This document shows, in pieces, positions 36,584 to 61,179 of a stretch of 64,000 nucleotides of DNA. A program made the translations under genes and the position numbers. This DNA is from an uncultured Gammaproteobacteria bacterium (GTDB taxonomy: Bacteria > Patescibacteriota > Microgenomatia > CAZETR01 > Amesbacteraceae): positions 56,218 to 120,217 of the forward strand of contig CAZWKN010000001.1 in assembly GCA_964633995.1 (NCBI GenBank), written 5' to 3'. Under the pieces are notes generated by a model. It worked only from the letters and a program-made list of their open reading frames with translations, did no database searches and had not been told where the DNA came from. How positions within the stretch are numbered: position 1 is the first letter of the stretch; each line of letters begins with the position of its first letter.

Positions 36584-36590
36584 TTTTGCA

Positions 36591-41271: not shown

Positions 41272-41282
41272 AAAAAAATTTG

Positions 41283-41461: not shown

Positions 41462-41539
41462 ACAGTCTGTTTAATTCACACTTCGCCGGGGGTTCTCCTG
41501 AATTTAATCTGGCGGAGGAGGTATAAGGAGAACAATCAA

Positions 41540-42686: not shown

Positions 42687-42694
42687 TAAGTGAG

Positions 42695-43249: not shown

Positions 43250-43269
43250 GCCTGTAGTAAAATGGAGTT

Positions 43270-43494: not shown

Positions 43495-43514
43495 TTTTTG
43501 GTAGACTGGGGGAC

Positions 43515-44654
43515 ATGGCAACGTTTGTAATCTTTTTGGGACTTTTGTCTATTTTGGTTTTGATACATGAGTTGGGTCATTTTGTGGCGGCTAGGTTGTT
43601 TGGAGTGAAAGTGGAGGAGTTTGCTTTTGGATTACCGTTTACACCGCCGATTTTTAAGATAAAAAAGGGAGAGACCCAATATTCCATTTACCCTTTGGTG
43701 TTTGGTGGGTTTGTAAGGCTCCATGGAGAGGACCGTGAGGGGGACGATAAGAAACGATCATTTTGGAACAGGGGTAAAAAACAGAGATTGATGGTGATAC
43801 TTGCGGGAGTGATTATGAATGTAGTTTTGGGTTTTTCCGGCTTTATGATTTTGTATGGCATGGTTGGGGTTCCTGTGGCCAAAAAAGACAAAGTTACCAT
43901 TACTCAGGTCATTTTGGGGTCCCCGGCTGAAAAGGCGGGGGTAAGGGAAAATGACAGGATTTATTCAGTCGAAGGAAAAGAGATTGTGACCCTTGAGGAG
44001 TTTTCGAGACTAATGAAGTCGTGGGCCGGACTTACCGTCAATCTGGTGGTTGAACGAGGGACGACTACGCCTTTGTTTGAGGGTATTGCTGAAAAAAAAG
44101 TGGAAAGAAAGGCAATAGTGGTAACACCACGAGTCAATCCGCCTGCCGGTGAGGGAGCTTTGGGGGTGGGGATTGCCGCCTTCCCGTATTTGGAAACAAA
44201 AAAAGTCGGAGAGGTTTCCGGAGTTGAATTTGTAAAATTGGCGGTCGGGCAAAGTTTGGATAGCACTAAAATTTGGATGGGGAGAATCGTAGATGGACTT
44301 CGTAGTATTGGCCAGAGTTTGTCGAGAGGTAAAGCCCCGGAAGGGGTGTCCGGGCCGGTGGGAATTTATAAACTAACCGAGGTGGTTATCGCGGAAGGAT
44401 TGGCTCCGCTTCTGGAGCTTATGGCTATATTGTCGATTAATCTTGCGGTGTTTAATGTATTACCGATTCCAGCTTTGGATGGAGGTAGAGCACTGTTTAT
44501 AATTTTAGAGTGGGTAATGAAAAAACGAATTTCAGCTGCTACTGAACAAAAAGTTAATTCGTGGGGCATGGCGTTTTTGCTAGGACTTATGGTTTTGATA
44601 TCACTGCAGGATGTGGTGAGGTTGGGGTTTTTGGATAAACTAGTGGGGAAGTAG
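43515..44654 (+). CDS. rseP: RIP zinc metalloprotease RseP-like (site-2 protease with PDZ)
   Basis: HELGHFVAARLFGV in TM1, PDZ segment, C-terminal LDGG motif. Confidence 0.85.
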   Translation: MATFVIFLGLLSILVLIHELGHFVAARLFGVKVEEFAFGLPFTPPIFKIKKGETQYSIYPLVFGGFVRLHGEDREGDDKKRSFWNRGKKQRLMVILAGVIMNVVLGFSGFMILYGMVGVPVAKKDKVTITQVILGSPAEKAGVRENDRIYSVEGKEIVTLEEFSRLMKSWAGLTVNLVVERGTTTPLFEGIAEKKVERKAIVVTPRVNPPAGEGALGVGIAAFPYLETKKVGEVSGVEFVKLAVGQSLDSTKIWMGRIVDGLRSIGQSLSRGKAPEGVSGPVGIYKLTEVVIAEGLAPLLELMAILSINLAVFNVLPIPALDGGRALFIILEWVMKKRISAATEQKVNSWGMAFLLGLMVLISLQDVVRLGFLDKLVGK

Positions 44655-44678
44655 GTTTGGGTGTAAAATACGTATGGT

Positions 44679-44909
44679 ATGGGGAAAAGAAGAATCGCTG
44701 AAGGATATGCGAGGGACAAAGAGCGTCCATTGGTTGACTTTGTGACTCATTGCGGAAGAACGGACTGTTTTTTCGCCTGGATTTGTGTGCCGTTAAATTT
44801 GCTAAGGAGAATTGCCGCTATGGGTTGGTTTACTGACGAAGAGTTGCCTAGGTTGGAAGAACTTGCCGCGAAACAGTGTGGGGTGGCAAAGGATGATTTG
44901 AGATACTGA
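44679..44909 (+). CDS. Hypothetical small protein
   Basis: 76-aa ORF. Confidence 0.3.
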   Translation: MGKRRIAEGYARDKERPLVDFVTHCGRTDCFFAWICVPLNLLRRIAAMGWFTDEELPRLEELAAKQCGVAKDDLRY

Positions 44910-44910
44910 G

Positions 44911-45888
44911 ATGAGACTGGGTGAGTTTGATTACGAACTGCCGAAGGAGTTGATTGCTCAAGTGCCAGTGGAACCCCGGGATAGTAGTAGGTTGATGGTG
45001 GTAAGCCGAAACACGGGGAAAATCGAACATGATTATTTTTATAATTTGCCAAACTATTTAAATTCCTCTGACCTGATGGTTTTTAATGAAAGTAAAGTGT
45101 TTCCGGCAAGACTTTTTGGAAATAAAAAAACCGGAGGCAAGGTGGAAGTGCTACTACTTTCTAGGGTAGATAATACTAGTTGGAAATTTATTGGGAAAAA
45201 TCTACGAGGGGTTAGAGAGGTTGGGTTTGAAGGAAACTTGACTGCTAATATTGTTCGACCCGGGGTAATAAAATTTGATTGCGAAGATACCGAAATGATG
45301 CCTTTATTAAATCGGATTGGGTACACTCCGTTACCACCTTACATCATTACAAATCGCTTATCGCATAATGCGAATATAAGGCGAAGGTATCAGACGGTGT
45401 ATGCAAGGGATATGGGAAGTGCGGCGGCGCCGACGGCAGGACTGCATTTTACAAAGAAGTTAATTAAGAAATTAAGAGATTTAGAAATTCAGCAGGAGTT
45501 TGTAACTTTGCATGTGGGACTTGGAACCTTTTTACCCGTAAAAGCTGAAAATATTGAGGAACATAAAATGCACTCTGAATTTTTTAGAATAGACCAAGAA
45601 ACAAGAAACAAGATACAAACAGCAAAGAGGGTTGTAGCAGTTGGGACGACGAGTGTAAGGGTGCTGGAAAGTGATTGGTCGAAGAATGAAACTGATATTT
45701 TTATATATCCGGGTTATAAGTTTAAAAATGTTGGGGCAATGATAACTAATTTCCATTTGCCCAAGAGTTCGCTTTTGATGCTGGTGTCGGCATTTGCAGG
45801 GAAAGAATTGATTTTTGAGGCTTACCGTAAGGCCATAGAAGAAAAATATAGGTTTTTTAGTTTTGGGGATGCTATGATCATTTTATGA
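44911..45888 (+). CDS. queA: S-adenosylmethionine:tRNA ribosyltransferase-isomerase
   Basis: N-terminal MRLGEFDYELPKELIAQ and QueA family motifs. Confidence 0.9.
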   Translation: MRLGEFDYELPKELIAQVPVEPRDSSRLMVVSRNTGKIEHDYFYNLPNYLNSSDLMVFNESKVFPARLFGNKKTGGKVEVLLLSRVDNTSWKFIGKNLRGVREVGFEGNLTANIVRPGVIKFDCEDTEMMPLLNRIGYTPLPPYIITNRLSHNANIRRRYQTVYARDMGSAAAPTAGLHFTKKLIKKLRDLEIQQEFVTLHVGLGTFLPVKAENIEEHKMHSEFFRIDQETRNKIQTAKRVVAVGTTSVRVLESDWSKNETDIFIYPGYKFKNVGAMITNFHLPKSSLLMLVSAFAGKELIFEAYRKAIEEKYRFFSFGDAMIIL

Positions 45889-46067
45889 TCTCTGAAGACG
45901 AAACACGGAATGCATTTGTTGTTTTTTTCAGAAAATTATCAAGGGCGGGGCTGAATGGTGAAGCGGTGGGAGCAGCAATTGACGAACGGTCGGGAAGGTC
46001 GAATGGTATTGTAGCGACTGTTTTGACGTTGTTGGGGAAAGAAAGAAAAATGAGAGCAGCGAGGAGA

Positions 46068-47168
<1,101 letters not shown>

Positions 47169-47242
47169 TTAACTTGACAGAAACACGCAAAATATGGCAA
47201 TCTGGAGCTACTGAAAATTAGCTGTTAGTTGAATTGGACGCT

Positions 47243-47395
47243 ATGAAAAAAAGCAAAAACGACTTTTTTCTGATGGTGTTGCTGTCTTCCGCTGTTGTTC
47301 TGAGCGGGTTTGTGATATGGAGCAAGTTGGTGGGTTCAAAAAATGCTCCTGAGGTTGCTGGGGCGAAGACGGAACTAAGCACAAAAGGTCAATAA
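47243..47395 (+). CDS. Possible 50-aa single-TM small protein (below the track's length cutoff)
   Basis: ATG...TAA read manually: MKKSKNDFFLMVLLSSAVVLSGFVIWSKLVGSKNAPEVAGAKTELSTKGQ. Confidence 0.25.
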   Translation: MKKSKNDFFLMVLLSSAVVLSGFVIWSKLVGSKNAPEVAGAKTELSTKGQ

Positions 47396-47396
47396 T

Positions 47397-47405
47397 TGGT
47401 ATAAT
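47397..47405 (+). promoter_or_regulatory. Extended -10 promoter element (TGGTATAAT) upstream of rpsU
   Basis: TGnTATAAT about 30 nt before the rpsU start; GGAAGGA Shine-Dalgarno downstream. Confidence 0.35.
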
Positions 47406-47434
47406 GGCAGTGTAAGGAAGGACGGTGATTTTTA

Positions 47435-47620
47435 ATGGCCACTATTGTGCGCAAGAAACCAGGTCAATCAGAAGATAAACTTATTGCCGATTTTCGAAAA
47501 AAAGTTCTCAACGACGAGATTCTTTTGGAGCTTAAAAAGAAGGAGTTTTATAAAAAACCTTCTTTGGTAAAGCAAGAAAAGTTAAAAGAACGTCGAAAAG
47601 GAAAGCGGAGAGTCTATTGA
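47435..47620 (+). CDS. rpsU: 30S ribosomal protein S21
   Basis: MATIVRKKPGQSEDKLIADFRKK... typical S21. Confidence 0.85.
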   Translation: MATIVRKKPGQSEDKLIADFRKKVLNDEILLELKKKEFYKKPSLVKQEKLKERRKGKRRVY

Positions 47621-48051
47621 TGTTTGACCGAATTAGGACTGATTTAACACTCGCAATGAAAGCGTCTGATGCGCTGGTTGTGTCGGTGCTTAGGATGCTG
47701 TTGTCCGAGTTAAATTACAAAAAAATAGATCTTCAGCGCGATTTGGTGGACGATGATGTGTTGGCCGTATTGGCTCGGGAAGTAAAAAAACGTCGGGAGT
47801 CTATTGAATCTTACACTGCGGGTGGCCGGATGGAGCAAGCTGAGCAAGAAAGATTGGAACTGGCTATTTTGCAAAAATATATGCCGAAGATGATGAGTGA
47901 GGATGAGGTGAGAGAAGAGATTAAGCGATTAAGCGAGAAAGAGATTAAGGGGTTGAGTGATTTTGGGCAGATAATGCGTGTGGTGTCGCCCCTGTTTAAG
48001 GGCAGGGCGGAAGGGTCTGTGGTGGCTAAGATTGTAAAAGAGCTGACATGA
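47617..48051 (+). CDS. GatB/YqeY domain protein
   Basis: YqeY-family sequence; conserved position after rpsU. Confidence 0.75.
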   Translation: MMFDRIRTDLTLAMKASDALVVSVLRMLLSELNYKKIDLQRDLVDDDVLAVLAREVKKRRESIESYTAGGRMEQAEQERLELAILQKYMPKMMSEDEVREEIKRLSEKEIKGLSDFGQIMRVVSPLFKGRAEGSVVAKIVKELT

Positions 48052-48416
48052 TAGCAGTTTCGATCACATCAGAATCGAGATACAAATTTGACAGGAAGAT
48101 GGTGAGAGAGGTGGTAAATACAACTCTTATGGCGCATGGAGTTACGGGAGATGTAGAGGTGGGGGTGGGTATGGTAGGTGAGAGAAAAATGAAACTATTG
48201 CACAAAAAGTACATGGAAACCGAGGAGACAACAGATGTGTTGTCCTTTCCAATAGGTGATAGATACCCCGACGGGCGATTAATAATGGGCGATATTGTGG
48301 TTTGTTATCCAGTGGCCGTAAAACAAGCTATGGAAAACAATAGGAGGGTAGACGAAGAGATCGCTTTTTTAGTAGAACACTCCTGTCTGCATCTACTTGG
48401 AATTCACCATGAGTGA
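48048..48416 (+). CDS. ybeY: Endoribonuclease YbeY (rRNA maturation)
   Basis: The C-terminal HSCLHLLGIHHE motif matches HxxxHLxGxDH. Confidence 0.8.
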   Translation: MIAVSITSESRYKFDRKMVREVVNTTLMAHGVTGDVEVGVGMVGERKMKLLHKKYMETEETTDVLSFPIGDRYPDGRLIMGDIVVCYPVAVKQAMENNRRVDEEIAFLVEHSCLHLLGIHHE

Positions 48417-48417
48417 G

Positions 48418-48606
48418 TCAGGTGAAAAGAAAATAAAGACCTAGTAAGGACACAAATAATCCGAAAATAGTGAGCAGTATCCGCCAAAGTAATGCCTTGG
48501 TAGTTTCTTTGGTAATGCTTTTTTGGGTGACAATATATCTTAGTCCGTATACAGTTGGAACAAGGCCGCAGATAAGGCAAATTATCGATAAAACACGATC
48601 AAGCAT
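48418..48606 (-). CDS. Small hypothetical 2-TM protein
   Basis: 62-aa hydrophobic ORF. Confidence 0.3.
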   Translation of the reverse strand: MLDRVLSIICLICGLVPTVYGLRYIVTQKSITKETTKALLWRILLTIFGLFVSLLGLYFLFT

Positions 48607-48658
48607 TTAACTAGTGTAGCATTTATTTTCTACTTTTTTTCTTTATACTGATAGGCGA

Positions 48659-50053
48659 ATGCAAACCTTTTACTTAAAATATCGACCGGCAAGAATAGCT
48701 GATTTAGATTTGGTATCGGTCCGAAATTTGTTAACATCCATGTTGTCTTCCGGAAATTTTCCACACGCTTGGTTGTTTACCGGACCCAGAGGTACCGGGA
48801 AAACTTCGTCGGCTAGGATTTTAGCAAAGGCAATTAACTGTATTGATCGGCAAGGAAGCGAGCCGTGTGGAAAGTGCGAGTCGTGTGTAACTATTGCGTC
48901 TGGTAGTTCGGTGGATGTGATAGAAATCGATGCGGCTTCGAATCGGGGGATTGATGATATTAGACAGCTTCGTGAACAGGTGGGGCTATCGCCCATGAAA
49001 GCCAAATACAAGGTGTATGTGATAGACGAGGTACACATGTTGACTACCGAGGCTGCCAATGCCTTGTTGAAGACCTTGGAAGAACCACCGGCTTACGTGG
49101 TGTTTGTGTTGTGTACTACTGATCCAGAAAAATTACCAGAGACGGTAGTATCAAGGTGTACACGGGTCCATTTCCTTAAACCCACTATGGTTGAGGCCGT
49201 GGCTTCGCTTGCAAAAGTGGTGACAGGTGAAAAGATGAAAGTTGCTCGAGAGGAATTGGAATTAGTGGCCAAATCAGCAAAGGGAAGTTTTAGAGATGCG
49301 ACAAAAATCTTGGAGCAGGTGTCATTGTCTGGGATGGACGTTAAACAAGTATTGGGACTTTTGGAAGTAGCGGATCCTGAGAAGTTTGTAGATTTATTAA
49401 TCGCGGGTAGTGTAGACGATGGTTTGAAGACAGTTGCAGCTATTTCGGAATCCGGGGTGGCTCTTAGGGGGTTTGTGGAGCGGGTAGTAGAAGTGGCGAG
49501 AAAGAGATTGTTGGCCGATTTGGCCGAAAAAGATAAATGGTTAAAAATAATTTCGGATTTAGATTTGGCATATGATCAGATGAGAACCGCGACGGTAGTC
49601 TCTTTGCCATTGGAAATAGTGGTAATAGAGAATTGCAAAACTTCAAAAAATCAGGAAATAAAGGTCCAGGATCCACCCGTGGTTGCCAAAAATACAACAA
49701 TAAATAACTCACGGCCAGATGTTGGTACTGACGATTTGAAGCAAAAATGGCCAGAGGTGTTAAAAGCCGTTAGGCCGATGAATCATTCGGTTGAGGCGTT
49801 ACTTAAGTCCACGCGCGTAGTCAATTTTGACGGGCGGGTTTTGACACTGGAAGTCTTTTATACGTTTCATAAAGACAAACTGGAGACAGAGAAGTGCAGA
49901 AAAATAGTAATTGATGCAGTTTCCGCAGTTATGGGATCAGGAGCGGTGAACTTAAAATTAATTCAATCTATCGGAGCAAAGAAGCCGACGGTCGAAGACT
50001 TGGCGACGGTTGCCGAGAACATTTTTGTTGACAAGAAGGTGGGTAGTGCGTAG
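48659..50053 (+). CDS. dnaX: DNA polymerase III subunit gamma/tau
   Basis: AAA+ GPRGTGKTS, a CxxC zinc module, and a sensor-1/2 arrangement. Confidence 0.9.
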   Translation: MQTFYLKYRPARIADLDLVSVRNLLTSMLSSGNFPHAWLFTGPRGTGKTSSARILAKAINCIDRQGSEPCGKCESCVTIASGSSVDVIEIDAASNRGIDDIRQLREQVGLSPMKAKYKVYVIDEVHMLTTEAANALLKTLEEPPAYVVFVLCTTDPEKLPETVVSRCTRVHFLKPTMVEAVASLAKVVTGEKMKVAREELELVAKSAKGSFRDATKILEQVSLSGMDVKQVLGLLEVADPEKFVDLLIAGSVDDGLKTVAAISESGVALRGFVERVVEVARKRLLADLAEKDKWLKIISDLDLAYDQMRTATVVSLPLEIVVIENCKTSKNQEIKVQDPPVVAKNTTINNSRPDVGTDDLKQKWPEVLKAVRPMNHSVEALLKSTRVVNFDGRVLTLEVFYTFHKDKLETEKCRKIVIDAVSAVMGSGAVNLKLIQSIGAKKPTVEDLATVAENIFVDKKVGSA

Positions 50054-50062
50054 AATTGCGGT

Positions 50063-50332
50063 ATGGGTATCGGTGATGCATTTGGAAAATTGGGTGATCT
50101 AAATAAGCTTCGACAGCAGGCCATGACGATACAGAAGAATTTGTCGGCCCAACAAATCACTGTCGAAGAGAACGGTGTGAGGATTGTTATTTCTGGTGAC
50201 CAGAGGATTTTGGAACTTGAAATATCTGGGATGTCAAATGACGTTTTGAACGACGTTTTGAATAAAGCTATCAGAAAGAGCCAGGAATTGGCCGCTAAAG
50301 AGCTGATGAATATCTCTGGTGGGCAAATGTAG
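50063..50332 (+). CDS. ybaB: Nucleoid-associated protein YbaB/EbfC
   Basis: 89 aa; YbaB pattern; conserved dnaX-ybaB-recR order. Confidence 0.85.
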   Translation: MGIGDAFGKLGDLNKLRQQAMTIQKNLSAQQITVEENGVRIVISGDQRILELEISGMSNDVLNDVLNKAIRKSQELAAKELMNISGGQM

Positions 50333-50346
50333 GGTAAAATAGGGGG

Positions 50347-50952
50347 GTGAGAGTAGCAAAAGCGGTTACCAATTTGATTGAGGCATTTGAGCGGTTGCCG
50401 GGTATAGGGCCTAAATCTGCGGCTAGGTTGGCTTATTACTTGTTACATGTCCCCCAGGGTGAATTGGACAAGTTTTCTGAGGCGGTTAAACAATTAAAAA
50501 CCATGACTAGGGAGTGCTCTGTGTGTCACAACATAGCAGAATCTGACCCCTGCGACATATGTAGTGACTATTCCAGGGATAAAACTACTATATGTGTGGT
50601 TGAGCAGCCCCTAGATGTCCTGGCAATGGAGAGAGGGGGCAAGTATAAGGGGGTTTACCATGTATTGAGTGGGGTAATTGACCCGTTGCACAATATCGGA
50701 CCGGAGGAGATAAAGATCGGAGAGTTAATGAAGAGATTAAGTGATTCAGAAGTAAAGGAGATTATTTTGGCTCTGAACCCAAACATGGAGGGAGAGGCGA
50801 CTAGTATGTATATTGTGAGGCAGTTGAAAATTGACAATGGACAATTAAAAATTACTAGGTTGGCGCATGGGTTGCCGGTGGGAGCGGATATTGAATACGC
50901 TGATGAGGTAACACTCTCAAGGGCGCTTTCTGGGAGGGTAGCCTATGATTAA
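50347..50952 (+). CDS. recR: Recombination protein RecR
   Basis: HhH LPGIGPKSAARL, C4 zinc finger, Toprim. Confidence 0.9.
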   Translation: MRVAKAVTNLIEAFERLPGIGPKSAARLAYYLLHVPQGELDKFSEAVKQLKTMTRECSVCHNIAESDPCDICSDYSRDKTTICVVEQPLDVLAMERGGKYKGVYHVLSGVIDPLHNIGPEEIKIGELMKRLSDSEVKEIILALNPNMEGEATSMYIVRQLKIDNGQLKITRLAHGLPVGADIEYADEVTLSRALSGRVAYD

Positions 50953-51940
50953 GCCCGTGGCTGTGGTGGCTGGTGATGTAGTGGGGGTAATTGCTCCTTC
51001 GGACGCAGTGGATAGGTCAAGCGTACAAAAAAGTGCCGAGATTATTGAGAACTGGGGACTAAAAGTTAAGTGGGGAAAACATGTATTTGCCAAAGTGGGA
51101 GATTTTATGGCGGGTACTGCCGAAGAAAGGCAGGAAGACCTAAGATCAATGATCTTTGATCCTGAAATCAAGGTCATTTGGGCGGCAACTGGTGGATATG
51201 CTGCTACGGAAGTATTGCCGGTATTTAACAAAGAGACTATTGAATTCTTGAAAAAAAATCCGAAATGGTTTGTGGGATACAGTGACATATGTTTGTTTTT
51301 AAATGCTTTGCTTTCGTACAACATAGTGTCTTTAATGGGGCCGTCGGTGTGGGGGCTTCCTGGTTGGGATAGTTTTTCCCAAGAGTTTGTAAGGAAGATG
51401 CTGTTTGGCGAAAAAGTCGACGGTTTTCCACTTAAGTCTAACTGGCAGCCTGCATTTATGGGGGAGGCGGAGGGTAAATTGGTGGCGGCTGATTTGGAAA
51501 CACTTTTGTTTTCATTTGGAACCAGATTTGATCCACTGATGTATGGTTCGTCGGACGTGATACTTGGAATTGAGGAGTTGGATATCGAAAAAAGCACATT
51601 ACAGCGCCAAATTGACGTTATTTTTAACCATAAGAAAGTTGAGAGAATCAAGGGCATGATTGTGGGCAGATTGGTAAATATTAAAGAAGTATCGTATCCG
51701 GAATGGGGTAAAAAAATGTCGGTTAGAGAATTGGTAATGAGTCGGGTGAAGCACGCTGGAATACCGATGGCCTTTTGTGATGATTTTGGACATGCAGAAT
51801 GGGATTATCCTCCATTTGAGGAAATCAAAAAGTTTTTTTACAACCGGAGATTTTTAACAGTTCCAAATGGAATAATGGCAAAATTAACTGTTGCCGAAAA
51901 GGATACAAAGCTCCAATTTTTAGAGAGTATTTGTGGTTGA
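50945..51940 (+). CDS. LD-carboxypeptidase (peptidase S66, LdcA/MccF-like)
   Basis: N-terminal GDVVGVIAPS pattern and overall S66 length. Confidence 0.6.
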   Translation: MIKPVAVVAGDVVGVIAPSDAVDRSSVQKSAEIIENWGLKVKWGKHVFAKVGDFMAGTAEERQEDLRSMIFDPEIKVIWAATGGYAATEVLPVFNKETIEFLKKNPKWFVGYSDICLFLNALLSYNIVSLMGPSVWGLPGWDSFSQEFVRKMLFGEKVDGFPLKSNWQPAFMGEAEGKLVAADLETLLFSFGTRFDPLMYGSSDVILGIEELDIEKSTLQRQIDVIFNHKKVERIKGMIVGRLVNIKEVSYPEWGKKMSVRELVMSRVKHAGIPMAFCDDFGHAEWDYPPFEEIKKFFYNRRFLTVPNGIMAKLTVAEKDTKLQFLESICG

Positions 51941-52140
51941 GAGATCGCCACGCCCGCCTGCGGTGAGGCTTTGCAATGACACGATTTTAAAACCTCACCC
52001 TCATTCCCTCTCCTGAATTCAGGAGAGGGAGGCCATTTGTTTTTTGTCATTGCGAATGTAATGAAGCAATCTAGTTTGAGATCGCCACGCTTTCGCCTGC
52101 CTGCCGGCAGGCAGGCGATGACAACGCAGAAACCCGTGAT
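51941..52140. repeat. Composite intergenic repeat region
   Basis: Visible in sequence: 13-bp direct repeats GAGATCGCCACGC at 51941 and 52078; an inverted pair GCAATGACA/TGTCATTGC; copy 2 of the folD palindromic element at 51993-52032; a perfect 24-bp palindrome CGCCTGCCTGCCGGCAGGCAGGCG at 52094-52117. Confidence 0.6.
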
Positions 52141-52150
52141 ATCATAAGTT

Positions 52151-52582
52151 ATGGCAGTAAGAAATGTGTTTCAGAATCCATTTGAGTCGATCGAGGGCAT
52201 TGCCAAGGCAGCTGTTCCTCCGATAAAAAAGGCGGTAAAGGCAGTAGTACAGGACGCAAAACAACAATTGACGGGTGAGTATTCTGCGCAAAATGAGACT
52301 CCGGGCGGGGTAAAGGAGATTCCGGTGTATGAGCAGAAACAAATCGAGGATGATTCCAAAAGACTGTTGGACGAGACCAGAATGCGGCTTGAGAGAATAA
52401 ATGCAGATATCAAAAGGGCGCGGGAGCAAAGACTTTCCAAAATTCAGCAAAAAGAGCAGGCTAAGGCCCAAGAAAAACAGAAGAAGGAGTTTGAACAGAA
52501 AAAGAAAGACGAGGATCCGGCATGGAAAAAAATGCTCAAAGGTAAAACCGGGTCAAGAGAGGCCGGACGGGGTAGTGGATGA
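52151..52582 (+). CDS. Hypothetical Lys/Glu-rich coiled-coil protein
   Basis: 143-aa ORF. Confidence 0.35.
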   Translation: MAVRNVFQNPFESIEGIAKAAVPPIKKAVKAVVQDAKQQLTGEYSAQNETPGGVKEIPVYEQKQIEDDSKRLLDETRMRLERINADIKRAREQRLSKIQQKEQAKAQEKQKKEFEQKKKDEDPAWKKMLKGKTGSREAGRGSG

Positions 52583-52626
52583 TTTGCTACTATACAAACC
52601 CCTTGGGGACTGTATAATCATGAGTA

Positions 52627-53031
52627 ATGCAAAATAGATTGTATGTAGGTGGACTTTCCTGGGGGACGACTGATGATTCATTGGCCGCTGCTTTTTCACA
52701 GGCTGGTAACGTAGCATCGGCTAAAGTAATTGTAGATCGTATGACCGGCAGGTCAAAGGGATTTGGGTTTGTGGAGATGGCGTCGGAAGCTGAGGCACAA
52801 AAGGCGATTGAGATGTTTAATGGCCAAATATTGGATGGCAGAAACATTACGGTAAATATAGCTAGACCAATGGAAGACAGGCCTCCGAGAACTGGTGGAT
52901 TTGACCGAGGGCCAAGAGATTTTAACCGTGGAAGTAGGGGAAATTTTGATAGCCGTGGTGGAAATGGAAGCGGATTTAGAGGTGGGAACAGAAATAGCGG
53001 TGGGAGTGGATTTAGGCGCGGATCTAGGTAA
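52627..53031 (+). CDS. RRM-type RNA-binding protein with a Gly/Arg-rich tail
   Basis: RNP2 LYVGGL and RNP1 KGFGFVEM motifs. Confidence 0.8.
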   Translation: MQNRLYVGGLSWGTTDDSLAAAFSQAGNVASAKVIVDRMTGRSKGFGFVEMASEAEAQKAIEMFNGQILDGRNITVNIARPMEDRPPRTGGFDRGPRDFNRGSRGNFDSRGGNGSGFRGGNRNSGGSGFRRGSR

Positions 53032-53256
53032 TCTTTTCTTTTTTGCAGTATTTTTTACGGAGGACTTCTGTGTCTGCGTGCGGCTGTATAAGATCGGAAA
53101 TTGATTGAGTTAGCCTTGCTATTGAAAGAAAAAGTGAGGCCAAAGCTGTGTTGCCAACGGCCCTGTGTTTCTCTGATCTTTCTGTTAATCTTGACCAAGT
53201 ACGATTGGATTTTTTTAGTAATTCAAGAATGGCCATGGGTGTATTATACTGGTATT

Positions 53257-54672
53257 ATGCGTATTTTCAATTCTTTGAGTCGTGAAGTCGAGGATTTGGT
53301 GCCGGTTAGAGCTGGGAAAATCGGAATGTATACTTGTGGTCCGACTGTATATGACTATGATCACATTGGGCATGGCAGGAAATATACATACGATGATTTG
53401 CTAAGAAGGACATTGGTGTACAACGGTTTTGAAGTAATGCATGTGCAAAATATAACTGACGTGGGACATTTGGTATCCGACGCCGATGAGGGTGAGGATA
53501 AACTGGAAAAAGGGGCCAGAAAAACCGGCAAGACAGCTTTTGATGTGGCTAGGTTTTTTACTGACGCGCATTTTGCATCTATGGATTTGTTAAATATCCT
53601 AAGACCTTCGATTTCATGTAAGGCCACAGACCATATTGCTGAGCAGGTGCAGTTGGTGCAAAAGCTTTTGGATAAGGGGTTTGCATATGAAACACCCGAG
53701 GCTGTGTATTTTGACGTATCAAAATTTCCACGATATGAAAGTTTGTTCGGAAAGCGGGTTATTTCAGATAAGCAGGTGGCGGTGCGGGATGAAGTCCAAA
53801 CCGGTGAACATAAAAAAAGTCCTGAAGATTTTGCGTTGTGGTTTAAGCGGGTAGGAAGATTTTTGGATCATAGCATGCATTGGGATAGTCCATTTGGAGA
53901 TGGGTTTCCAGGATGGCACATTGAGTGCTCTGCTATGGCCATGAAGTATTTGGGGGAGACGTTTGATATTCATACCGGGGGTGAAGATCATTTGCCAATT
54001 CACCATCCCAATGAAATTGCTCAATCTGAAGCGGCGACCGGTAAGGTATTTGCTAAATATTGGGTTCACTATGCTTTTCTGACAGTGGACGGGACAAAGA
54101 TGAGCAAGTCGTTGGGTAATTATTACCGGGTAGAAGATGTGGTGTCTAAGGGATTTAACCCATTGGCTTTGAGGTATTTATACCTGACCGCTCACTATCG
54201 GAAGCCCTTGAATTTTACCTGGTCCAGCCTGGCCTCGGCCCAGACGGCATTGGATAAGTTAGTTCAATTTGTCAGAGATACTAGATCTAAGATGTTGGAT
54301 GCTAGTAGGACCGAGTTGTCTAGGGAAAAATTGAAAAAATTGGATGGATTTCGGGCGAAATTTTTGGAAGCGATAAATGATGACTTGGGTTTCCCGCAGG
54401 GTTTAGCTGTGGTGTGGGAAATGTTAAAAAGTAATATTCCTGATTATGACAAGCTGGATCAACTATTGGATTGGGATGAAGTGTTGGGATTGGGTTTATC
54501 TAAAATTGGAGAAGATGTGGTGCCAGAGGATGTAAAAAAAATTGGGATAGAAAGAGAAGTGTTGCGTAATTTGGGAAAGTTTGTGGAGGCGGATAATTTG
54601 AGGATGCAGATTGAGCAAATGGGATTTACAATAAAAGATACTGCCAATGGAACAATTTACGCTAAGAAATAA
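53257..54672 (+). CDS. cysS: Cysteine--tRNA ligase
   Basis: HIGH region (HIGHGRKY) and KMSKS. The start was chosen at the internal ATG 53257 (MRIFNSLSRE...) by homology. Confidence 0.9.
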   Translation: MRIFNSLSREVEDLVPVRAGKIGMYTCGPTVYDYDHIGHGRKYTYDDLLRRTLVYNGFEVMHVQNITDVGHLVSDADEGEDKLEKGARKTGKTAFDVARFFTDAHFASMDLLNILRPSISCKATDHIAEQVQLVQKLLDKGFAYETPEAVYFDVSKFPRYESLFGKRVISDKQVAVRDEVQTGEHKKSPEDFALWFKRVGRFLDHSMHWDSPFGDGFPGWHIECSAMAMKYLGETFDIHTGGEDHLPIHHPNEIAQSEAATGKVFAKYWVHYAFLTVDGTKMSKSLGNYYRVEDVVSKGFNPLALRYLYLTAHYRKPLNFTWSSLASAQTALDKLVQFVRDTRSKMLDASRTELSREKLKKLDGFRAKFLEAINDDLGFPQGLAVVWEMLKSNIPDYDKLDQLLDWDEVLGLGLSKIGEDVVPEDVKKIGIEREVLRNLGKFVEADNLRMQIEQMGFTIKDTANGTIYAKK

Positions 54673-55303
54673 GGTGTTTAAAGTAGTTCTCATATTAGAT
54701 TTAGTTCTGGTTAACGTTGTTTTGGGGTATTTAGTTTACAAATTTCAATCACCAATTCCCAAGGAACAAACAACTTCCAATAACCAAATTACAAATTTAA
54801 AAACTGAGTATTTGGATAAATGTGGGGAGGAGTGTTTGAAGGTAATTCGTTTGGAAGTAGCGAAGTTGGAACCTAGTTTACCGGTAGCTACTGTAAGTCC
54901 GACTATAATTACGAAGGTTGTTAAATCTAAAATTCGAACCGTGCAGTATGTGACGGTTCCGGGATCTGGATATACGTCGGCAAATAGTTGGAGTGATGTG
55001 CCGGGCACCGATTTTTATTTTGACACCAAGGATTACCCTGGGCTTTTGGAAGTGTATTTTGAGTCTACGGAGAGTCTGTTGAATGGGAATGGGGTGGCAT
55101 ATGTGCGACTTTTTGATGTTACTCACGGAATTGGAGTACAGGGGAGTGATACGCAGACATCGGCCCAGACGGCGGGGGTAGTGACTAGTGGCAAGGTCAA
55201 TTTTTGGTCTGGAAGAAATTTGATTAGGGTGCAGGCCAAAAGCCTGACCGCCGATACTGCAGTTTATGCAACGGGGAGGCTAAGAATAGTAACAGAAAAC
55301 TAA
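54647..55303 (+). CDS. Hypothetical membrane-anchored protein
   Basis: 218 aa, one N-terminal TM helix. Confidence 0.4.
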   Translation: MEQFTLRNKVFKVVLILDLVLVNVVLGYLVYKFQSPIPKEQTTSNNQITNLKTEYLDKCGEECLKVIRLEVAKLEPSLPVATVSPTIITKVVKSKIRTVQYVTVPGSGYTSANSWSDVPGTDFYFDTKDYPGLLEVYFESTESLLNGNGVAYVRLFDVTHGIGVQGSDTQTSAQTAGVVTSGKVNFWSGRNLIRVQAKSLTADTAVYATGRLRIVTEN

Positions 55304-55354
55304 TTTACCAGATTTCGCGGCCGCGAAAAATGGTAAAAGTTTGGATGCAATAAT

Positions 55355-56284
55355 TTGGGGATGGATGAAGGGGGGAAATCGGAGGGATCGCCCAAAACCG
55401 GGGATAGTCAAAATTATTATGAACGTTTGGGGGTTGCGCGTGGTGCGTCTGAAAAAGAGATAAAGGTTGCATTTAGAAAAGGAGCGAGAGGTGTCCACCC
55501 GGATGTTAATAAAGGCCCGGATGCAGAAGAAAAGTTTAAACAGATAAATGAGGCATATGGGGTGCTTTCTGATAAGGCAAAAAGGGCAGCATATGATGAG
55601 AGTCTTGATAGGCCAACACCATCTCCAATTCCCGAAACTTATGAACAACAACTTGCCAGGCAGGAGAGGGAGAGGAGAGCGCAAGAGGCAAGAGATGAAG
55701 CTGCACATAAAGAACGAATGGCGGAATTTGCCAGGAAAAAAGCAGAAAGAGAGAATGCGAGACAGGAAAAAGCTGCGAAAACCGAAGAATTATTAGAAGC
55801 GCGATCGAAACTGGCTGAAGTGAAACTGGCTGAGGAAGCGAAAGATTTGGCGAAAAAAGCAGGTGAGGTTGTTGGTAGAAGACTTTCGGCTTGTATTTAT
55901 GATCCAAAGCGGATTATCCAGGCTGATGTTGATAGAGATTTTTTGGCCAGGACCCTCCCATTGGGGCCTTTGGCGACTATCGCTACGAGAAGATCAACCG
56001 TAGATACTGTTCTCTTGAATCTTTCTAACAATAATAGTCTGAGAGAAGCATTGGGGCAGCATTGGGCTGGAGTCCAGCCAAAACTGGTTTTGGATAATAC
56101 GGAGTCTGTTTTAGAAAGCCGATTGACGGAAGTTGTTTTGGCAAAAAAATATGAGCAGCTTCATGGGAGTGAGATGGCCGTGCCACACGACCCACTATTT
56201 CCTGCAAATAGGATGGAATATTTAGCAGGATTTAGAAATGGGTGGAGTGCGGTTGAGGAAGAAAATGCTAAAATTAAGAAATGA
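55355..56284 (+). CDS. J-domain protein (not canonical DnaJ; lacks the Cys-rich zinc finger)
   Basis: J domain with HPD (YYERLGV...[26 protein letters not shown]), followed by a charged low-complexity region. Confidence 0.7.
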
Positions 56285-56958
56285 AAAAGGTTAGTGTGAG
56301 GGGGGTGATATTTGATTTGGATGGGACGGTGTTTGATAATGAGGGAGAGTGGGAAGCAGCCTTTAGGGTCGTAATGGACAATGGACATTTGACAATTGAC
56401 AATGGAGGGAGGAATGGGTGGGTGCATGAGCCGGGGATTGGGATAGGGCCAAATTGGCGGAAGTTGATACCCCATGATCCAGCAAAGATTGAGAAACTGA
56501 CATTGGAAACATGCAAAGTCTATCAGGAACAATTTGCCAGTTTGAGGGTAAGGGATGGACTATTAGATCTCGTGGAAAAAATTAAGGAGAAAGGACTTTT
56601 GACCGGACTGGCGACGGGAAGTAGTTGGAACATGGTGGAAAGAGAATTGGAAGAGCTTAATTTATACTTGGCTTTTGACGTTACTACTACTGGCGAAGAA
56701 GTATTGGTGCAAAAACCTGATCCGGAAATATATTTACTGACTGCAGGTAAGTTGGAATTGGATCCAACTGAGTGTGTAGTTATTGAAGACGCCGTTGCTG
56801 GCGTGCAGGCGGCGGTAGAAGCCGGGTGCCGGGTGGTGGGAATAAAATCTGAATATGCCAGTGAGGAAATGCTTAAGAATGCGGGGTGTGAATGGGTGGT
56901 GGAAAGTTTGGAAGAGGTGGCAGATTTGATTTTAGTTGACGAGGGGAGTATACTATAA
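56281..56958 (+). CDS. HAD-superfamily hydrolase (beta-phosphoglucomutase-like)
   Basis: Motif [10 protein letters not shown], plus motif II/III-like segments. Confidence 0.75.
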
Positions 56959-56963
56959 GACAT

Positions 56964-57251
56964 ATGAGCGTAGTACAAAGTGCATTAGGATTATATCTCT
57001 CTGGCGTGATGGCATTTATTGGAGCTGAGGGGGTAGGGCCTAGGGGAATTGAGATCATTAATGTTGATGGTAGTAGAATATTGTGTCCTGCTGGAAAAGA
57101 AGTGGGGATTTACATGCCACCCGAGGGTAGCGTGACCTCAACGGTTTCGACAAATTGTAACCGTACGATGAGGATTGGTCCTGGTATGAGGGTTTTACGG
57201 GATGGAAAAGAGTGGCGCGTAACTGAACTTAATCCGCGTAGTGTTAGGTAA
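56964..57251 (+). CDS. Hypothetical protein
   Basis: 95-aa ORF. Confidence 0.3.
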   Translation: MSVVQSALGLYLSGVMAFIGAEGVGPRGIEIINVDGSRILCPAGKEVGIYMPPEGSVTSTVSTNCNRTMRIGPGMRVLRDGKEWRVTELNPRSVR

Positions 57252-57302
57252 GCTAAATAGTGCTGTATTGAATTGGGCTTGGGGAATTCGTATCATTGAT
57301 GG

Positions 57303-57749
57303 GTGAAGTTTTTGTATTTGATATTAGGAGTGATTGGGGTGGGGTTGGTGGTGGTGTTTTTGAATTTGTTGGTATTAAGTCCCAAGAAAGTGCAAAAAGG
57401 GGTAGAGCTACTTAGGCAATCTAGCCCGCCAAGTTTGGCCTGGAAACAGGAGTTGAAGGCTTTGATTGGTGCTGACGTTGGTAGACATGTAATTGACACC
57501 GATCCGGATTTTTTGATAGTTTTGGGTACGGTAGATCGGATTGAGCCGCATTTGGTGCTTAAAGCCGGTAACGCGGAAATTGAGATAGTGACATCGCCGG
57601 AGACGGAGTACCAGAGAATTGTTGGAACTAACTTGGCTTCAGCCAGACGGGCTAGTATGGTAGAGATAACAAAGGGTGCGAGTTTAATTGTAAGATTGGT
57701 AGCAGCGAATGGGAAATATGTGGCGAAATATATTCAGATTCAGCAGTAG
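57303..57749 (+). CDS. Hypothetical membrane-anchored protein
   Basis: 148 aa, N-terminal TM helix. Confidence 0.35.
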   Translation: MKFLYLILGVIGVGLVVVFLNLLVLSPKKVQKGVELLRQSSPPSLAWKQELKALIGADVGRHVIDTDPDFLIVLGTVDRIEPHLVLKAGNAEIEIVTSPETEYQRIVGTNLASARRASMVEITKGASLIVRLVAANGKYVAKYIQIQQ

Positions 57750-59910
57750 TCTGGTAATAATCTTGGTGTTTGGGTTGATTGCGTTACCCGGACGGATTTT
57801 GGCGTTGTCGTATGGTACATCGTGTGGTTGGACAGGGACTCAATGTGGAGTTTCGGTGTGCACGGCCTACGAAGATATTGGTAAGCCATGCGCCATGTCT
57901 GGTGGACAGTGTTGGTGTTCGTATTCTGTGGGCTGTACCAGCTCCGGGTGTTGGCCGGCTGCATGTACCGGAACAACGGTTTTTACAATGCAGCCGAATT
58001 CGTATTGTGCGCCCGACCCCACCAATACTCCGGTGCCGACTGATATTCCTGGCGGAGTGATGTATTGTGGTAATTGTGATGCGGGTACATGTGGGTTGAT
58101 GGACGCGGCTGGTTGCGCTACGGTTGGAGACACAGATGGAAATGGGGTATGTAGTGGAAATTGCGCCGGCACTACTCCTTCGGCGTGTAATCCTGGAACT
58201 TTTATCGGAAGTACGATTTCGAGCACTCAATTAAACCCGGGTCAATCTGTAAACGTAAGCTGTGATTATGGAGTGACGCCTGATTGTATCTGGCCTGATT
58301 TGCCAACCCCTTGTACTTGGACGGGTAATTCGGGATCGGTGATTAACTTTAACTGTACGGCACCATTGGTTAACGGTAGTTATAACGTCTCGTGTGGCAT
58401 GCATACGGGAACCGGGGGAAATTGTTGTGCATCCACTAATAGTGGTCCAGCGTTTAACGTGGGTCCGACGCCAACTGCTATACCAATACCTACGTGTAAT
58501 TTGACTGGGCCTGTGAAAGTTTGTCAAAACCAATCATTTGGCCCGTTTGGGGCAACAACCAATGGTACTGCCGGTGGGGTGACTAGTGTGGGAATATATG
58601 AGTCTTTGGTTTCTACTCCAAATGCCTGGGATACAATTGTGACGACTAATGGTACAAGTGTATCTGGTAATTGGGTGTTTAGTTCTTTAGGAAATCATTA
58701 CGCAGTGTGTAACGCGTATAACACTCCCGGGGGAACTAAATGTTCGGGAAATGCGCCAGGAGGAACTATGGATTTGTGGGGAAATCCATTGATTAGTTGG
58801 TCTGACTGTGGAAGTTTGGATGTACTAACAGTGACAAGTGTGACTAATCCTTCGGCCCCTGGAAGTGTTTGGGGGGTAGATGTAGGAAATAAAATTGACG
58901 TTCATTGGACTGCTGGGGCCGGAATGACTGGATATAATGTATATCGAGGAACAGACGCATCGGGTGTACTTTTGACTCCAGTTCCACTTGCTTCGACCAC
59001 CACTAGCTTTGTCGATGCCACTGCGATTTGTGGTTCGTTGCAGTCTTATTATGTTGAGTCGGTAAATTCGGCTAACCCAGTTAGTTGTCAGGCTTCGGGT
59101 AGTGTAGGATTTGGGAGCTGTATAAATTATCAACCTTGGTTTTCGGTTTTTGGTGGAGGAGTGGTGGGTGCAAGTGGCAATGTAGGGACGACAATCCCGT
59201 CAGGTAAATTTATGATAAATGGATCGGGAATGGTTTTTGGGCGGGATTGGTATGGCAATTTAAGCTCTGCAAACGTGTCAACAAATGCATGGATGGTTAA
59301 AAATGATTCCTGGGTAGACATCGCTTCAAAGAATGAAAATAAATATTCGGCACTAAAGGAGCGCTTAATGGTGCAATCGATGCCGATAACAATAAATGCA
59401 GTTGACCCTAATTTAATTACCGTTATTGATTCGGCTTCTAATGGAAACAAGATTTCGGATGTGACTGTGGGATATTCCGGTGCGGGCTTGACTCTAAATT
59501 CTGCACAAAATTTAAACGGACGGAAGATGGTGATTTTGGTGGAAGGGGGGAATGTTAATTTGAACGGCCAGGTTAGGGTAGGGGCGGGGGGATTTTTGGC
59601 TATTTTAGCTAAAAATGACATTAATATTTCTACTACGGTTGGGGAAGGTGTCCCTGGTGATATTACTCTTGCGGGTTATGCTCCTCATCTTGAAGGCATA
59701 TTTTATGCTCAAGGCAGTATCTATACTGGAGTTGGGGTAAAACAATTGCGAATAGACGGATCTTTGGTGGGAATGGGTGGTGTGTCTTTACAAAGAACGT
59801 ATATGGGTCAATACCCGGCAGAATATGTATATTTTAGACCTGATCTTGCGGATATCATGACCAAATTAAATTTGAGGAAGAAAGTTTTACAAGAACAAGT
59901 AAATCCCTAA
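57718..59910 (+). CDS. Large secreted cysteine-rich protein
   Basis: Signal/TM N-terminus, then ~230 aa with about 40 Cys in CxxxC/CG patterns. A fibronectin-III-like segment (WTAGAGMTGYNVYRG) follows. The C-terminal region is Gly/Asn-rich and beta-helix-like. The start was set at the in-frame Met 57718. Confidence 0.55.
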   Translation: MWRNIFRFSSSLVIILVFGLIALPGRILALSYGTSCGWTGTQCGVSVCTAYEDIGKPCAMSGGQCWCSYSVGCTSSGCWPAACTGTTVFTMQPNSYCAPDPTNTPVPTDIPGGVMYCGNCDAGTCGLMDAAGCATVGDTDGNGVCSGNCAGTTPSACNPGTFIGSTISSTQLNPGQSVNVSCDYGVTPDCIWPDLPTPCTWTGNSGSVINFNCTAPLVNGSYNVSCGMHTGTGGNCCASTNSGPAFNVGPTPTAIPIPTCNLTGPVKVCQNQSFGPFGATTNGTAGGVTSVGIYESLVSTPNAWDTIVTTNGTSVSGNWVFSSLGNHYAVCNAYNTPGGTKCSGNAPGGTMDLWGNPLISWSDCGSLDVLTVTSVTNPSAPGSVWGVDVGNKIDVHWTAGAGMTGYNVYRGTDASGVLLTPVPLASTTTSFVDATAICGSLQSYYVESVNSANPVSCQASGSVGFGSCINYQPWFSVFGGGVVGASGNVGTTIPSGKFMINGSGMVFGRDWYGNLSSANVSTNAWMVKNDSWVDIASKNENKYSALKERLMVQSMPITINAVDPNLITVIDSASNGNKISDVTVGYSGAGLTLNSAQNLNGRKMVILVEGGNVNLNGQVRVGAGGFLAILAKNDINISTTVGEGVPGDITLAGYAPHLEGIFYAQGSIYTGVGVKQLRIDGSLVGMGGVSLQRTYMGQYPAEYVYFRPDLADIMTKLNLRKKVLQEQVNP

Positions 59911-59931
59911 TAAATATATAATGAATAGACC

Positions 59932-61179
59932 ATGAAGAAGTGGAATGTGGGACCGGGAATTGTAACTGGGGCTGCAGACGATGATCCGTCTGGGATTGCC
60001 ACATTTGCACTGGCAGGGGCAAGATTTGGATTTTCCATGTTGTGGGTGAGTCTTTTTACAATTCCATTTATGGCGGCGGTGCAAGAGATGTGTGCTCGGA
60101 TCGGAATGGAGACAAAAGTGGGGTTGATGGGGGCTTTGAAAAAATGTTTCCCTCATAAAAGGGCTAAACCGTTTTTGGTTTTATTGGCTGGTTTGGTGTT
60201 TTTGGCCAATACATTGAACGTGGGAGCTGACGTGTCGGCGATGGTTGCTACCACCAGATTGCTTGTGGCAGTTCCTGAGGTGGTGCTGGCTATAATATAT
60301 GTCGTAGTATTGGGATTTTTGGTGGTAGTGGGTTCATATAAAACGGTGGCCTCGGTGTTTAAGTGGCTGAGCATGATTCTGTTTTTATATATATTTTCAG
60401 CTCTTTTGGCCCATTTAAACTGGAAAGATGTGCTGATGGGTACATTGTTTCCGAAGATTTCGTGGACGAAAGACTACTTTATGATGTTGGTGGCTATGTT
60501 GGGTACCACTATTAGTCCTTATTTATTTTTTTGGCAGGCTTCTGAAGAGGTCGAGGAAAAAGAGGAGGATGCAAGACTCCGGGGGATTTCTAGAATAGAG
60601 TTGACGAAAAAGGATCTAGGGATAATGCGTAAAGATGTGCTAATTGGAATGGCCTTTTCGAATATAGCAATGTATTTTGTGGTTGCGGCAACAGCCGGAA
60701 CCTTACATGCGCATGGTATTACCAATGTATTGACGCCGGTAGATGCGGCAGTAGCGCTGGAGCCTGTAGCCGGAAGATTCAGCGCTCTTTTTTTTACTTT
60801 AGGGGTATTGGGTACTGGTATGTTGGCGATCCCGGTTTTGGCAGGTTCTGCGGCTTATGCGGTTGGTGAAACCTTTGATCTTAGTACGGGTCTCAATAAA
60901 TCGTGGCAGAAAGCGAGGGGTTTTTACGGGATATTTATTGCGGCTTTGGTGGGAGGGCTAATTTTGTCGGTTGTGGGTTTTGATCCAATTAAGTTGCTAT
61001 TTTATACTGCGGTGGTGTTTGGTGTGATTTCTCCACCGTTGATAGCGTTGGTTTTGTGGGTTGCGAACTCAAAGCGTGTGATGGGGGATCGGGTCAATGG
61101 AGGGATAGCAAACACCCTGGGATTTATGACGCTACTAATTATGTCTGTTGCGGCGGTTGTTATGTTTGTGGTAACCTAA
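59932..61179 (+). CDS. NRAMP-family divalent metal transporter (MntH-like)
   Basis: GPGIVTGAADDDPSGIAT (compare GPGFL...DPGN) and MAAVQEMCARIG; ~11 TM helices. Confidence 0.65.
   Translation: MKKWNVGPGIVTGAADDDPSGIATFALAGARFGFSMLWVSLFTIPFMAAVQEMCARIGMETKVGLMGALKKCFPHKRAKPFLVLLAGLVFLANTLNVGADVSAMVATTRLLVAVPEVVLAIIYVVVLGFLVVVGSYKTVASVFKWLSMILFLYIFSALLAHLNWKDVLMGTLFPKISWTKDYFMMLVAMLGTTISPYLFFWQASEEVEEKEEDARLRGISRIELTKKDLGIMRKDVLIGMAFSNIAMYFVVAATAGTLHAHGITNVLTPVDAAVALEPVAGRFSALFFTLGVLGTGMLAIPVLAGSAAYAVGETFDLSTGLNKSWQKARGFYGIFIAALVGGLILSVVGFDPIKLLFYTAVVFGVISPPLIALVLWVANSKRVMGDRVNGGIANTLGFMTLLIMSVAAVVMFVVT

Follow-up and report, generated by a model that had tools for sequence, protein, structure and literature searches.

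The 210-nt gap at positions 51941-52150, which separates ldcA from a gene for a 143-aa protein (orf143), is very probably a REP/BIME-like mosaic of four hairpin units belonging to two dispersed families, gained between genes that overlap in relatives. In the whole stretch of DNA that was analysed (64,000 nt, hereafter the window), genes are tightly packed, with gaps mostly shorter than 50 nt, so that a gap of this length is unusual here. On its upstream side lies ldcA (50945-51940, + strand; LD-carboxypeptidase, peptidase S66; Pfam PF02016/PF17676), whose TGA stop codon (51938-51940) abuts the first repeat unit, and on its downstream side lies orf143 (52151-52582, + strand), a conserved hypothetical gene that lacks both a Pfam match and a Shine-Dalgarno sequence. 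The gene order is dnaX, an 89-aa ORF, recR, ldcA, the gap, orf143, a gene for an RRM protein and cysS, all on the + strand. Over the whole window, long ORFs are nearly all on the + strand, and the GC skew is very strong and uniform, with values between +0.17 and +0.44 in all 2-kb bins. Because the homologs of FolD and LdcA carry the names Candidatus Amesbacteria or Microgenomates, we take the host to be a CPR genome; the closest relatives in the collections reach ~69% protein identity at best (LdcA). A spacer that consists wholly of repeat hairpins stands out in small, tightly packed CPR genomes. Two contigs of a separate Logan assembly of SRR8893623 match 51941-52027 and 52045-52150 exactly and leave 17 nt (52028-52044) uncovered, one of them stopping within a 33-nt repeat that the spacer shares with folD. 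This contig break (L001) was considered as a sign of high copy number and rejected, since the repeat accounts for it; k-mer assemblies break at the spacer through this folD/spacer repeat.

A comparison with a relative that has an empty site had been proposed in a sequence-only reading of this DNA. The segment is missing in four relatives with LdcA identities of 64-69% (L002, L010/L011, L012 and L013), in which ldcA overlaps the orf143 homolog without any spacer, by 10-13 nt in three of them and by 43 nt in L002, and the homolog starts within the end of ldcA. We therefore regard the spacer as a lineage-specific gain, seen against distant empty sites only, as the best LdcA identity is 69%. In the window, the C-terminus of LdcA and the N-terminus of orf143 are both complete, which implies that the overlap was to some extent duplicated when the spacer was gained; the two copies of the junction are now only weakly alike. 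Where the overlapping start codon of orf143 lay in the ancestor, the sequence now reads TTG, and this opens only a 12-codon frame into the first unit (51938-51975; LWLRDRHARLR, then a stop), apparently a remnant of the time when the genes overlapped. The ancestral overlapping genes were probably translationally coupled.

Of the four units, three belong to family 1, in the order +, -, +, and one to family 2. The four repeat features described in the sequence-only reading were all found at their positions and are non-random; unremarked there was that one repeat unit is present in three copies, which end at the 3' side in GCAATGACA, TGTCATTGC and GCGATGACA. The form of family 1 is 5'-GAG-ATYGC-CAC-(GCC, variable stem-loop, GGC)-TC-GCRAT-GACA-3', and a search with the regular expression GAGATYGC ... 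GCRATGACA returned exactly three matches in 64 kb (expected 0.05), here called A, C and B in their order along the spacer. Unit A (51941-51981, + strand) runs from GAGATCGCCACGC to GCAATGACA and is matched with E = 8.5e-6 by a covariance model, R1; it is eroded, with a C/A mismatch in the outer stem and the interior CCGCCTGCGGTGAGGC, and its predicted fold is weak (-3.4 kcal/mol, z = +1.1). Unit C (52045-52074, - strand), found by the regular expression and as the third-best R1 match in the window (E = 0.0077), is inverted (reverse complement CTAGATTGCTTCATTACATTCGCAATGACA), has an eroded, AT-rich interior with a weak fold of -2.0 kcal/mol, and points its tag end toward the tag end of unit A. 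Unit B (52078-52123, + strand), running from GAGATCGCCACGC to GGCGATGACA, is the best R1 match (E = 2.9e-6); its interior is a palindrome at 52093-52118 that is indeed perfect, as the earlier reading had it, with a length of 26 nt in place of the 24 nt given there, and it forms a hairpin of -14.1 kcal/mol (z = -3.6). Folding of units A and C is no better than that of shuffled sequences, and unit B is a strong hairpin.

The direct repeat GAGATCGCCACGC described earlier is exact at 51941-51953 and 52078-52090, with CGCCTGC 2-3 nt further on in both cases, and the 64 kb contain no third match when up to two mismatches are allowed (expected 0.37). Likewise confirmed was the inverted pair TTTGCAATGACA (51970-51981) / TGTCATTGCGAA (52045-52056), which is 92% complementary and corresponds to the 3' ends of units A and C. 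We tried the explanation that a unit and its tail had been duplicated in tandem over 137 nt and rejected it, as the tails are not significantly alike (shuffled tails score as high or higher in 65% of cases) and the interiors are alike only marginally (p 0.05). There is also an alternative pairing (51962-51999, + strand, an inverted repeat) between GGTGAGG (51962-51968), which lies on the "wrong" side, within unit A, and CCTCACC (51993-51999) in the left outer arm of the family-2 unit; it appears in the RNA minimum-free-energy fold, and as DNA it folds with -5.6 kcal/mol (z = -1.6).

To find family 1 elsewhere, IMG/VR was scanned with the pattern GAGATYGCCACGC-N8-38-GCRATGACA, which gave 82 matches in 72 loci, against a chance estimate of ~1 for up to 1e11 bases. 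The external copies take the form GAGATTGC-CAC-GCC-(variable stem, 3-4 nt loop)-GGC-TC-GCAAT-GACA. In an alignment of 36 copies, the inner stem, at positions that the pattern leaves unconstrained, is 97-99% paired (98.6% for the family alignment overall), and it covaries: we counted 41 double-change cells vs. 10.6 in shuffles, and pairing falls to 30-41% when the partner columns are slid. In the outer stem, a change from T/A to C/G covaries in 2 of 4 external C-variant copies (L032 and L069) and in unit B, whose outer stem ATCGC/GCGAT behaves like that of these copies, and this T/C covariation at position 6 is absent in L062/L071 and unit A. The covariance model R1 was built from external copies only, and its top three matches in the 64-kb window are B, A and C. 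As the search pattern was taken from the ends of units A and B, the matches of their ends in R1 are partly circular; unit C, the covariation of the inner stem and the conserved bases that were not selected for (…C…CTC…) are independent evidence for family 1. The family-2 pattern, too, was derived from the ends of a unit in the window.

These external copies bear directly on the earlier suggestion of a miniature non-autonomous element (MITE) with target duplication, in which the whole block would be a single element and the 13-nt repeats its target duplication. The exact 13-nt direct repeats, which are spaced by 137 nt and enclose inverted repeats, would suit such an element, as would the absence of the segment in relatives and the retention of both gene ends despite the ancestral overlap, which implies a junction duplication of ~10-13 nt for which the sequence evidence is weak. 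However, the 13-mer, if either T or C is accepted at one position (GAGATYGCCACGC), heads 82 unrelated external units, and is therefore element sequence and not target sequence. The two 13-nt repeats are the conserved 5' arms of two units in the same orientation, with no single inverted-repeat core between them, and the second of them is internal to the inserted block instead of lying at its edge. Moreover, apart from the stems of the single units the block lacks terminal inverted repeats, it splits into four units that occur independently elsewhere, and filled and empty family-1 sites lack a target duplication. We consider a MITE very improbable.

On 631 kb of phage contigs (GC 34-62%), R1 found 243 matches, at a density of up to ~1 per kb, both in clusters of mixed orientation (+/-/+) as in the spacer and in tandem arrays. 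One IMG/VR contig (L046, 2548-2790) has a tandem array of six units of 29 nt each with a period of ~38 nt, and the contigs L085, L059, L070, L028, L040 and L062/L071 have ~1 unit per kb. With a gene for an HK97-type capsid protein and a portal-like ORF, L085 looks like a real phage; its capsid, with ~30% identity to phages of many hosts, is uninformative on the host. On the same contig, the starts of the longest ORFs at 148-2214 and 2726-3214 (- strand) run upstream through family-1 units, giving N-terminal extensions such as MSLRAPFPLSLRGAQRRGNL and ..VIASETKQSQ.., and repeat-derived peptides of this kind are likely to pollute protein databases. Phage contigs that are ~80-95% identical differ by whole family-1 units in short gaps between genes, filled in one contig and empty in another, and comparison of the filled with the empty sites revealed no target duplication. 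Copies on one contig differ in the inner stem, which a simple copy-and-paste model does not predict. Within the 64-kb window the three copies of family 1 all lie in the ldcA/orf143 spacer; one marginal match was all that we found in 235 kb of other sequence, made up of ~70 kb from syntenic relatives and 170 kb from CPR-like contigs, and a family-1 31-mer had no match in PLSDB plasmids and GenBank phages. Family-1 and family-2 units lie 20-100 nt apart at L031 2856-3009, L046 8146-8269 and L046 8878-8941, so the mixed cluster of the spacer is not unique.

The family-2 unit of the spacer (51992-52030) consists of the arm ACCTCACCC (51992-52000), the link TCATT and the palindrome TCCCTCTCCTGAATTCAGGAGAGGGA (52005-52030), which forms a hairpin of -11.6 kcal/mol (z = -4.3). 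The full architecture of the family, known from 31 metagenome loci, is ACCTCACCC-link-CCCTCTCC..GGAGAGGG-link-GGGTGAGGT, about 53-75 nt in length. A complete unit lies in frame in folD (38161-38213, + strand; hairpin of -16.3 kcal/mol, z = -4.6). As had been proposed, the palindrome of the spacer is a copy of that in folD: TCCCTCTCCTGAATTCAGGAGAGGGA is exact at 52005-52030 and 38175-38200, with zero matches in shuffles, and over 33 nt the two copies are identical when one is inverted (38175-38207 is the reverse complement of 51998-52030). The earlier observation that the right arm is truncated holds against the full form, as the spacer copy reads ACCTCACCC-TCATT-CCCTCTCCTGAATTCAGGAGAGGG, ends immediately after the core and lacks the right outer arm GGGTGAGGT. 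In IMG/VR, the family-2 pattern has at least 166 matches in at least 120 viral loci (GC 33-73%), and among the matches listed the right outer arm is missing in most copies; in 131 of 141 copies the stem is extended by complementary bases. The exact 24-nt core was found at 31 metagenome loci, mostly from groundwater.

In 24 of these 31 loci the core lies within a reading frame that stays open for 150 aa or more. Two of the three reading frames of the core are open on both strands, the third holding a TGA, and the core is translated as PSPEFRRG or PLLNSGEG between TSP and GEV. Genes with the core in frame that were confirmed with Pfam are those for a Mur ligase, RecJ, Fmt (twice), Dus, UvrA, TsaD, MgsA and DprA. 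The 24-nt core is tolerated in frame within housekeeping genes. In folD (ORF 37738-38526), the insert adds 18 residues (STSPLHPSPEFRRGNEGE) between the catalytic and the NAD(P)-binding domains, at a linker site where many FolD homologs have no insert. At the same site, other Amesbacteria FolD homologs have different repeat-derived peptides (SPLTPLLNLGEGNERGE, PSDPPLNLRGGRKG, TQCSVLR, SGIMN and IEIPNKFK). The occurrence of family 2 in frame in essential genes matters for gene calling and for the alignment and structure prediction of CPR proteins, and it explains many spurious "hypothetical proteins" as repeat units read as protein. Three further short, heptamer-like families (TGCTCAGTGCTCA.., AGTGCTAAGTAC.. 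and ATTGCAGATCGCTTATCGC..) occur in the window both in spacers (16192-16236, 23516-23546, 24014-24059 and 26613-26650) and in frame in ORFs; other sites are 30968-30994, 31516-31555, 32857-32887, 33472-33491, 33605-33635, 36688-36707 and 45346-45376. The ORFs that carry them, with functions judged by eye, are topoisomerase-like (32576-34546), PBP-like (30249-31886) and GlyA-like (36534-37778), and the resulting peptides include NSMLSAQCSMLNIS, EVLGTKGKVLR and IADRLSLIANK.

With both families described, a purely local origin can be weighed, in which template switching or snap-back repair, together with local duplication of a unit, would have produced the spacer, and its likeness to sequences elsewhere would have arisen by convergence, through selection for hairpins that act as terminators or insulators. 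Several features are consistent with such an origin: the cores of unit B and of the family-2 unit are perfect, loop-less 26-nt palindromes, beyond what an RNA hairpin needs; the left arm of unit B repeats the TCGCC of the unit itself; the interiors of A and B are marginally similar (p about 0.05); and the inner stems of family 1 vary between copies and yet remain perfectly paired. Convergence, however, fails to account for unpaired or bulged flanks of 13 and 12 nt that are common to hundreds of copies in unrelated contigs, nor does it fit the identical 24-mer with its outer arms at 31 other loci or a presence/absence polymorphism that concerns whole units. We judge a local origin distinctly unlikely, and we favor a mosaic of dispersed units, in agreement with the REP-like composite of the sequence-only reading, as the spacer is built of small palindromic units, is absent in syntenic relatives, and has many copies of each unit type elsewhere.

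The spacer as a whole folds far better than its shuffles (z = -4.7 for the + strand and z = -6.6 for the - strand), and a structured ncRNA had been suggested in place of a mobile element. The stability of the predicted folds on both strands and the position immediately upstream of orf143 would agree with an ncRNA gene or a cis-regulatory leader (riboswitch or attenuator) for orf143. However, the search with Rfam covariance models returned nothing relevant at gathering thresholds and only chance-level matches at E up to 10: in the window tRNAs alone reached the gathering score, and the best match in the spacer had E = 0.1 and 20 bits vs. a threshold of 58 bits. The structure is a composite of independent repeat hairpins, the segment is not conserved, being missing in the four syntenic relatives, where coding sequence precedes the gene, and the predicted promoter lies downstream of all hairpins. 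An RNA gene or leader is accordingly scarcely credible, and the mosaic of repeat units again the better reading.

The suggestion of a complex terminator fared partly better. The family-2 hairpin, with a 12-pair stem, is followed by the T-rich tract GGCCATTTGTTTTTT (52031-52045, + strand) identified in the terminator scan, and the two form the best of 19 terminator-like sites in 40001-60000; the tail GCCATTTGTT passes the T-run test of the scan, the long T-run beginning ~5 nt past the stem. On the other hand, neither terminator-like nor promoter-like sites in the region are enriched over shuffles. A promoter-like site found by sequence scan at 52118-52145 (+ strand) combines a predicted -35 element, ATGACA, which is the 3' tag of unit B, with a 16-nt spacer and a TG-extended -10 element, TATCAT, that ends 5 nt before the ATG of orf143. 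Upstream of the + strand genes of the window, TANNNT occurs 3-12 nt before 29 of 60 starts, with a peak at 6-7 nt, vs. 8.4 +/- 2.7 at random positions, and a Shine-Dalgarno-like motif was found at only 17 of 60 starts, which suggests that leaderless transcription is widespread in this Amesbacteria genome. Starts with a TATAAT-like -10 box include 5596, 7948, 42695, 50063, 52627 and 57303. As -10 boxes 6-7 nt before start codons are common, the promoter-like site of orf143 fits the habit of the genome. We rejected family 1 as a mobile promoter cassette, as TANNNT is not enriched 16-18 nt past ATGACA in 220 copies; the site before orf143 is a local accident and not a property of family 1. Elsewhere in the window, a near-perfect palindrome TTTACCAGATTTCGCGGCCGCGAAAAATGGTAAA with the center GCGGCCGC lies at 55304-55337, directly 3' of an ORF that ends at 55303, and may be a terminator or an operator.

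The observations can be combined into a possible course of events. The units would be selfish or semi-domesticated DNA that forms single-strand hairpins and is copied in trans. The most likely agent would be an HUH/Y1 nuclease (RAYT or IS200/IS605-type) that reads the shape of the hairpin together with its unpaired flanks and leaves no target duplication; that such an enzyme moves the units in trans is a possibility we put forward tentatively. New units would settle preferentially beside existing ones and so give rise to clusters, and units A and C would have decayed since, while unit B and the family-2 core are still perfect palindromes. The insertion would have broken the overlap of ldcA and orf143, with the loss of any translational coupling. 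The family-2 hairpin and its T-run may now end or stabilize the ldcA transcript, and orf143 may be served by a leaderless-type promoter with the tag of unit B as its -35 element and TG-TATCAT as its -10 element. The spacer would thus exemplify how selfish hairpin DNA splits overlapping genes and adds a terminator-like hairpin and half a promoter. A wider reading, in which family 1 would be a phage-borne hairpin element of many lineages, with fixed unpaired flanks and an inner stem that is rewritten between copies and still perfectly paired, and family 2 the first in-gene selfish DNA in CPR, seems to us rather unlikely as a whole. If true, the rewriting of the family-1 stem would point to hairpin-templated copying or repair, or to a stem that carries specificity and is driven by an enzyme, and family 2 would colonize the domain linkers of essential genes, with FolD homologs holding different repeat-derived inserts at one site.

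Among known systems, we compared the spacer with miniature elements, repetitive extragenic palindromes (REPs) and in-gene repeats. MITEs are recognized by terminal inverted repeats that bound one element and by target-site duplications (PMC10969869), a description that the spacer block does not fit. Neither of the two families was found in the literature searched, in which a search with sequence strings gave noise alone and no relevant paper connected CPR with palindromic elements or REPs. Family 2 resembles Rickettsia palindromic elements (RPEs) and intragenic REPs (PMC10969869) in being palindromic and in occurring in frame in unrelated housekeeping genes as well as between genes, and like RPEs it encodes a recurrent peptide, TSPL-PSPEFRRG/PLLNSGEG-..GEV. 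An in-frame insert with the gene kept, as in RPEs, was found for family 2 in folD and in the nine Pfam-confirmed genes, and not for the spacer copy, which, unlike RPEs, is intergenic and truncated. Family 2 further differs from RPEs in its length (~53-75 nt vs. ~100-150 nt), its unrelated sequence and its host, which is a CPR bacterium and not Rickettsia.

Sequences close to one family-2 copy from a viral contig occur, unannotated, in ~3140 of 5426 E. coli genomes. E. coli chromosomes carry units of the form CTCACCC-n-CCCTCTCC-loop-GGAGAGGG, which we take to be BoxC, and family 2 is presumably related to them. The CPR form is distinguished from these units by a perfect, loop-less core with GAATTC at its center and by both outer arms. 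BoxC of E. coli is described as 56 bp long, with ~32 copies (PMC2267715). The spacer also shares with SPRITE-type repeats and T4 PeSL a repeat hairpin that is followed by a T-run and a unit end that supplies a promoter hexamer; it differs from them at the level of the families, in which no -10 element follows ATGACA at a fixed spacing and most copies have no T-run, and the terminator and promoter signals are therefore local by-products and not family properties.

REPs are hairpins of 20-40 bp with an unpaired GTAG or CGTC/TGTC tag, which occur as dimers and clusters, mostly after genes and in some cases within them (uvrA) (PMC3733652), and those of the CGTC type have a stem that starts with AT, a 3-nt tail and no known transposase (Di Nocera et al. 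2013, PMC3733652). Family 1 units are similar in being palindromic stem-loops of 30-46 nt (vs. the published 20-40 bp) and in having, on the complement strand, an unpaired TGTC tag, a stem that begins with A-T/T-A and a 3-nt unpaired tail. The reverse complements of A, B and C all start with TGTC-AT, and among 220 external copies the tag is TGTC in 196 and CGTC in 19 (~9%). Also like these REPs, family 1 is extragenic, lies between genes of the same direction directly after the stop of the upstream gene, occurs in inverted pairs and clusters, and is not known to have a transposase of its own. However, its stem is bipartite, with an outer stem of 5 bp, a CAC/TC internal loop and a variable inner stem of 3-10 bp, in place of the 8-9 continuous bp and the loop of 4-5 nt of the families CGTC-1 to CGTC-4 (PMC3733652), and for this reason family 1 is not placed in these families. 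Its tail is CTC and not the published CCA (PMC3733652), head-to-tail neighbors are as frequent as head-to-head ones, and the motif GTCATTGC does not occur in the text or supplements of PMC3733652. With the REPIN/RAYT system (Bertels & Rainey 2011, PMC3116915) the spacer shares an inverted hairpin doublet (A with C), the lack of a target duplication and a plausible single-strand hairpin substrate; it differs in that its units have no GTAG tag and the partners of the doublet differ in their interiors. Taken together, these comparisons place the spacer as a fairly ordinary REP-type cluster.
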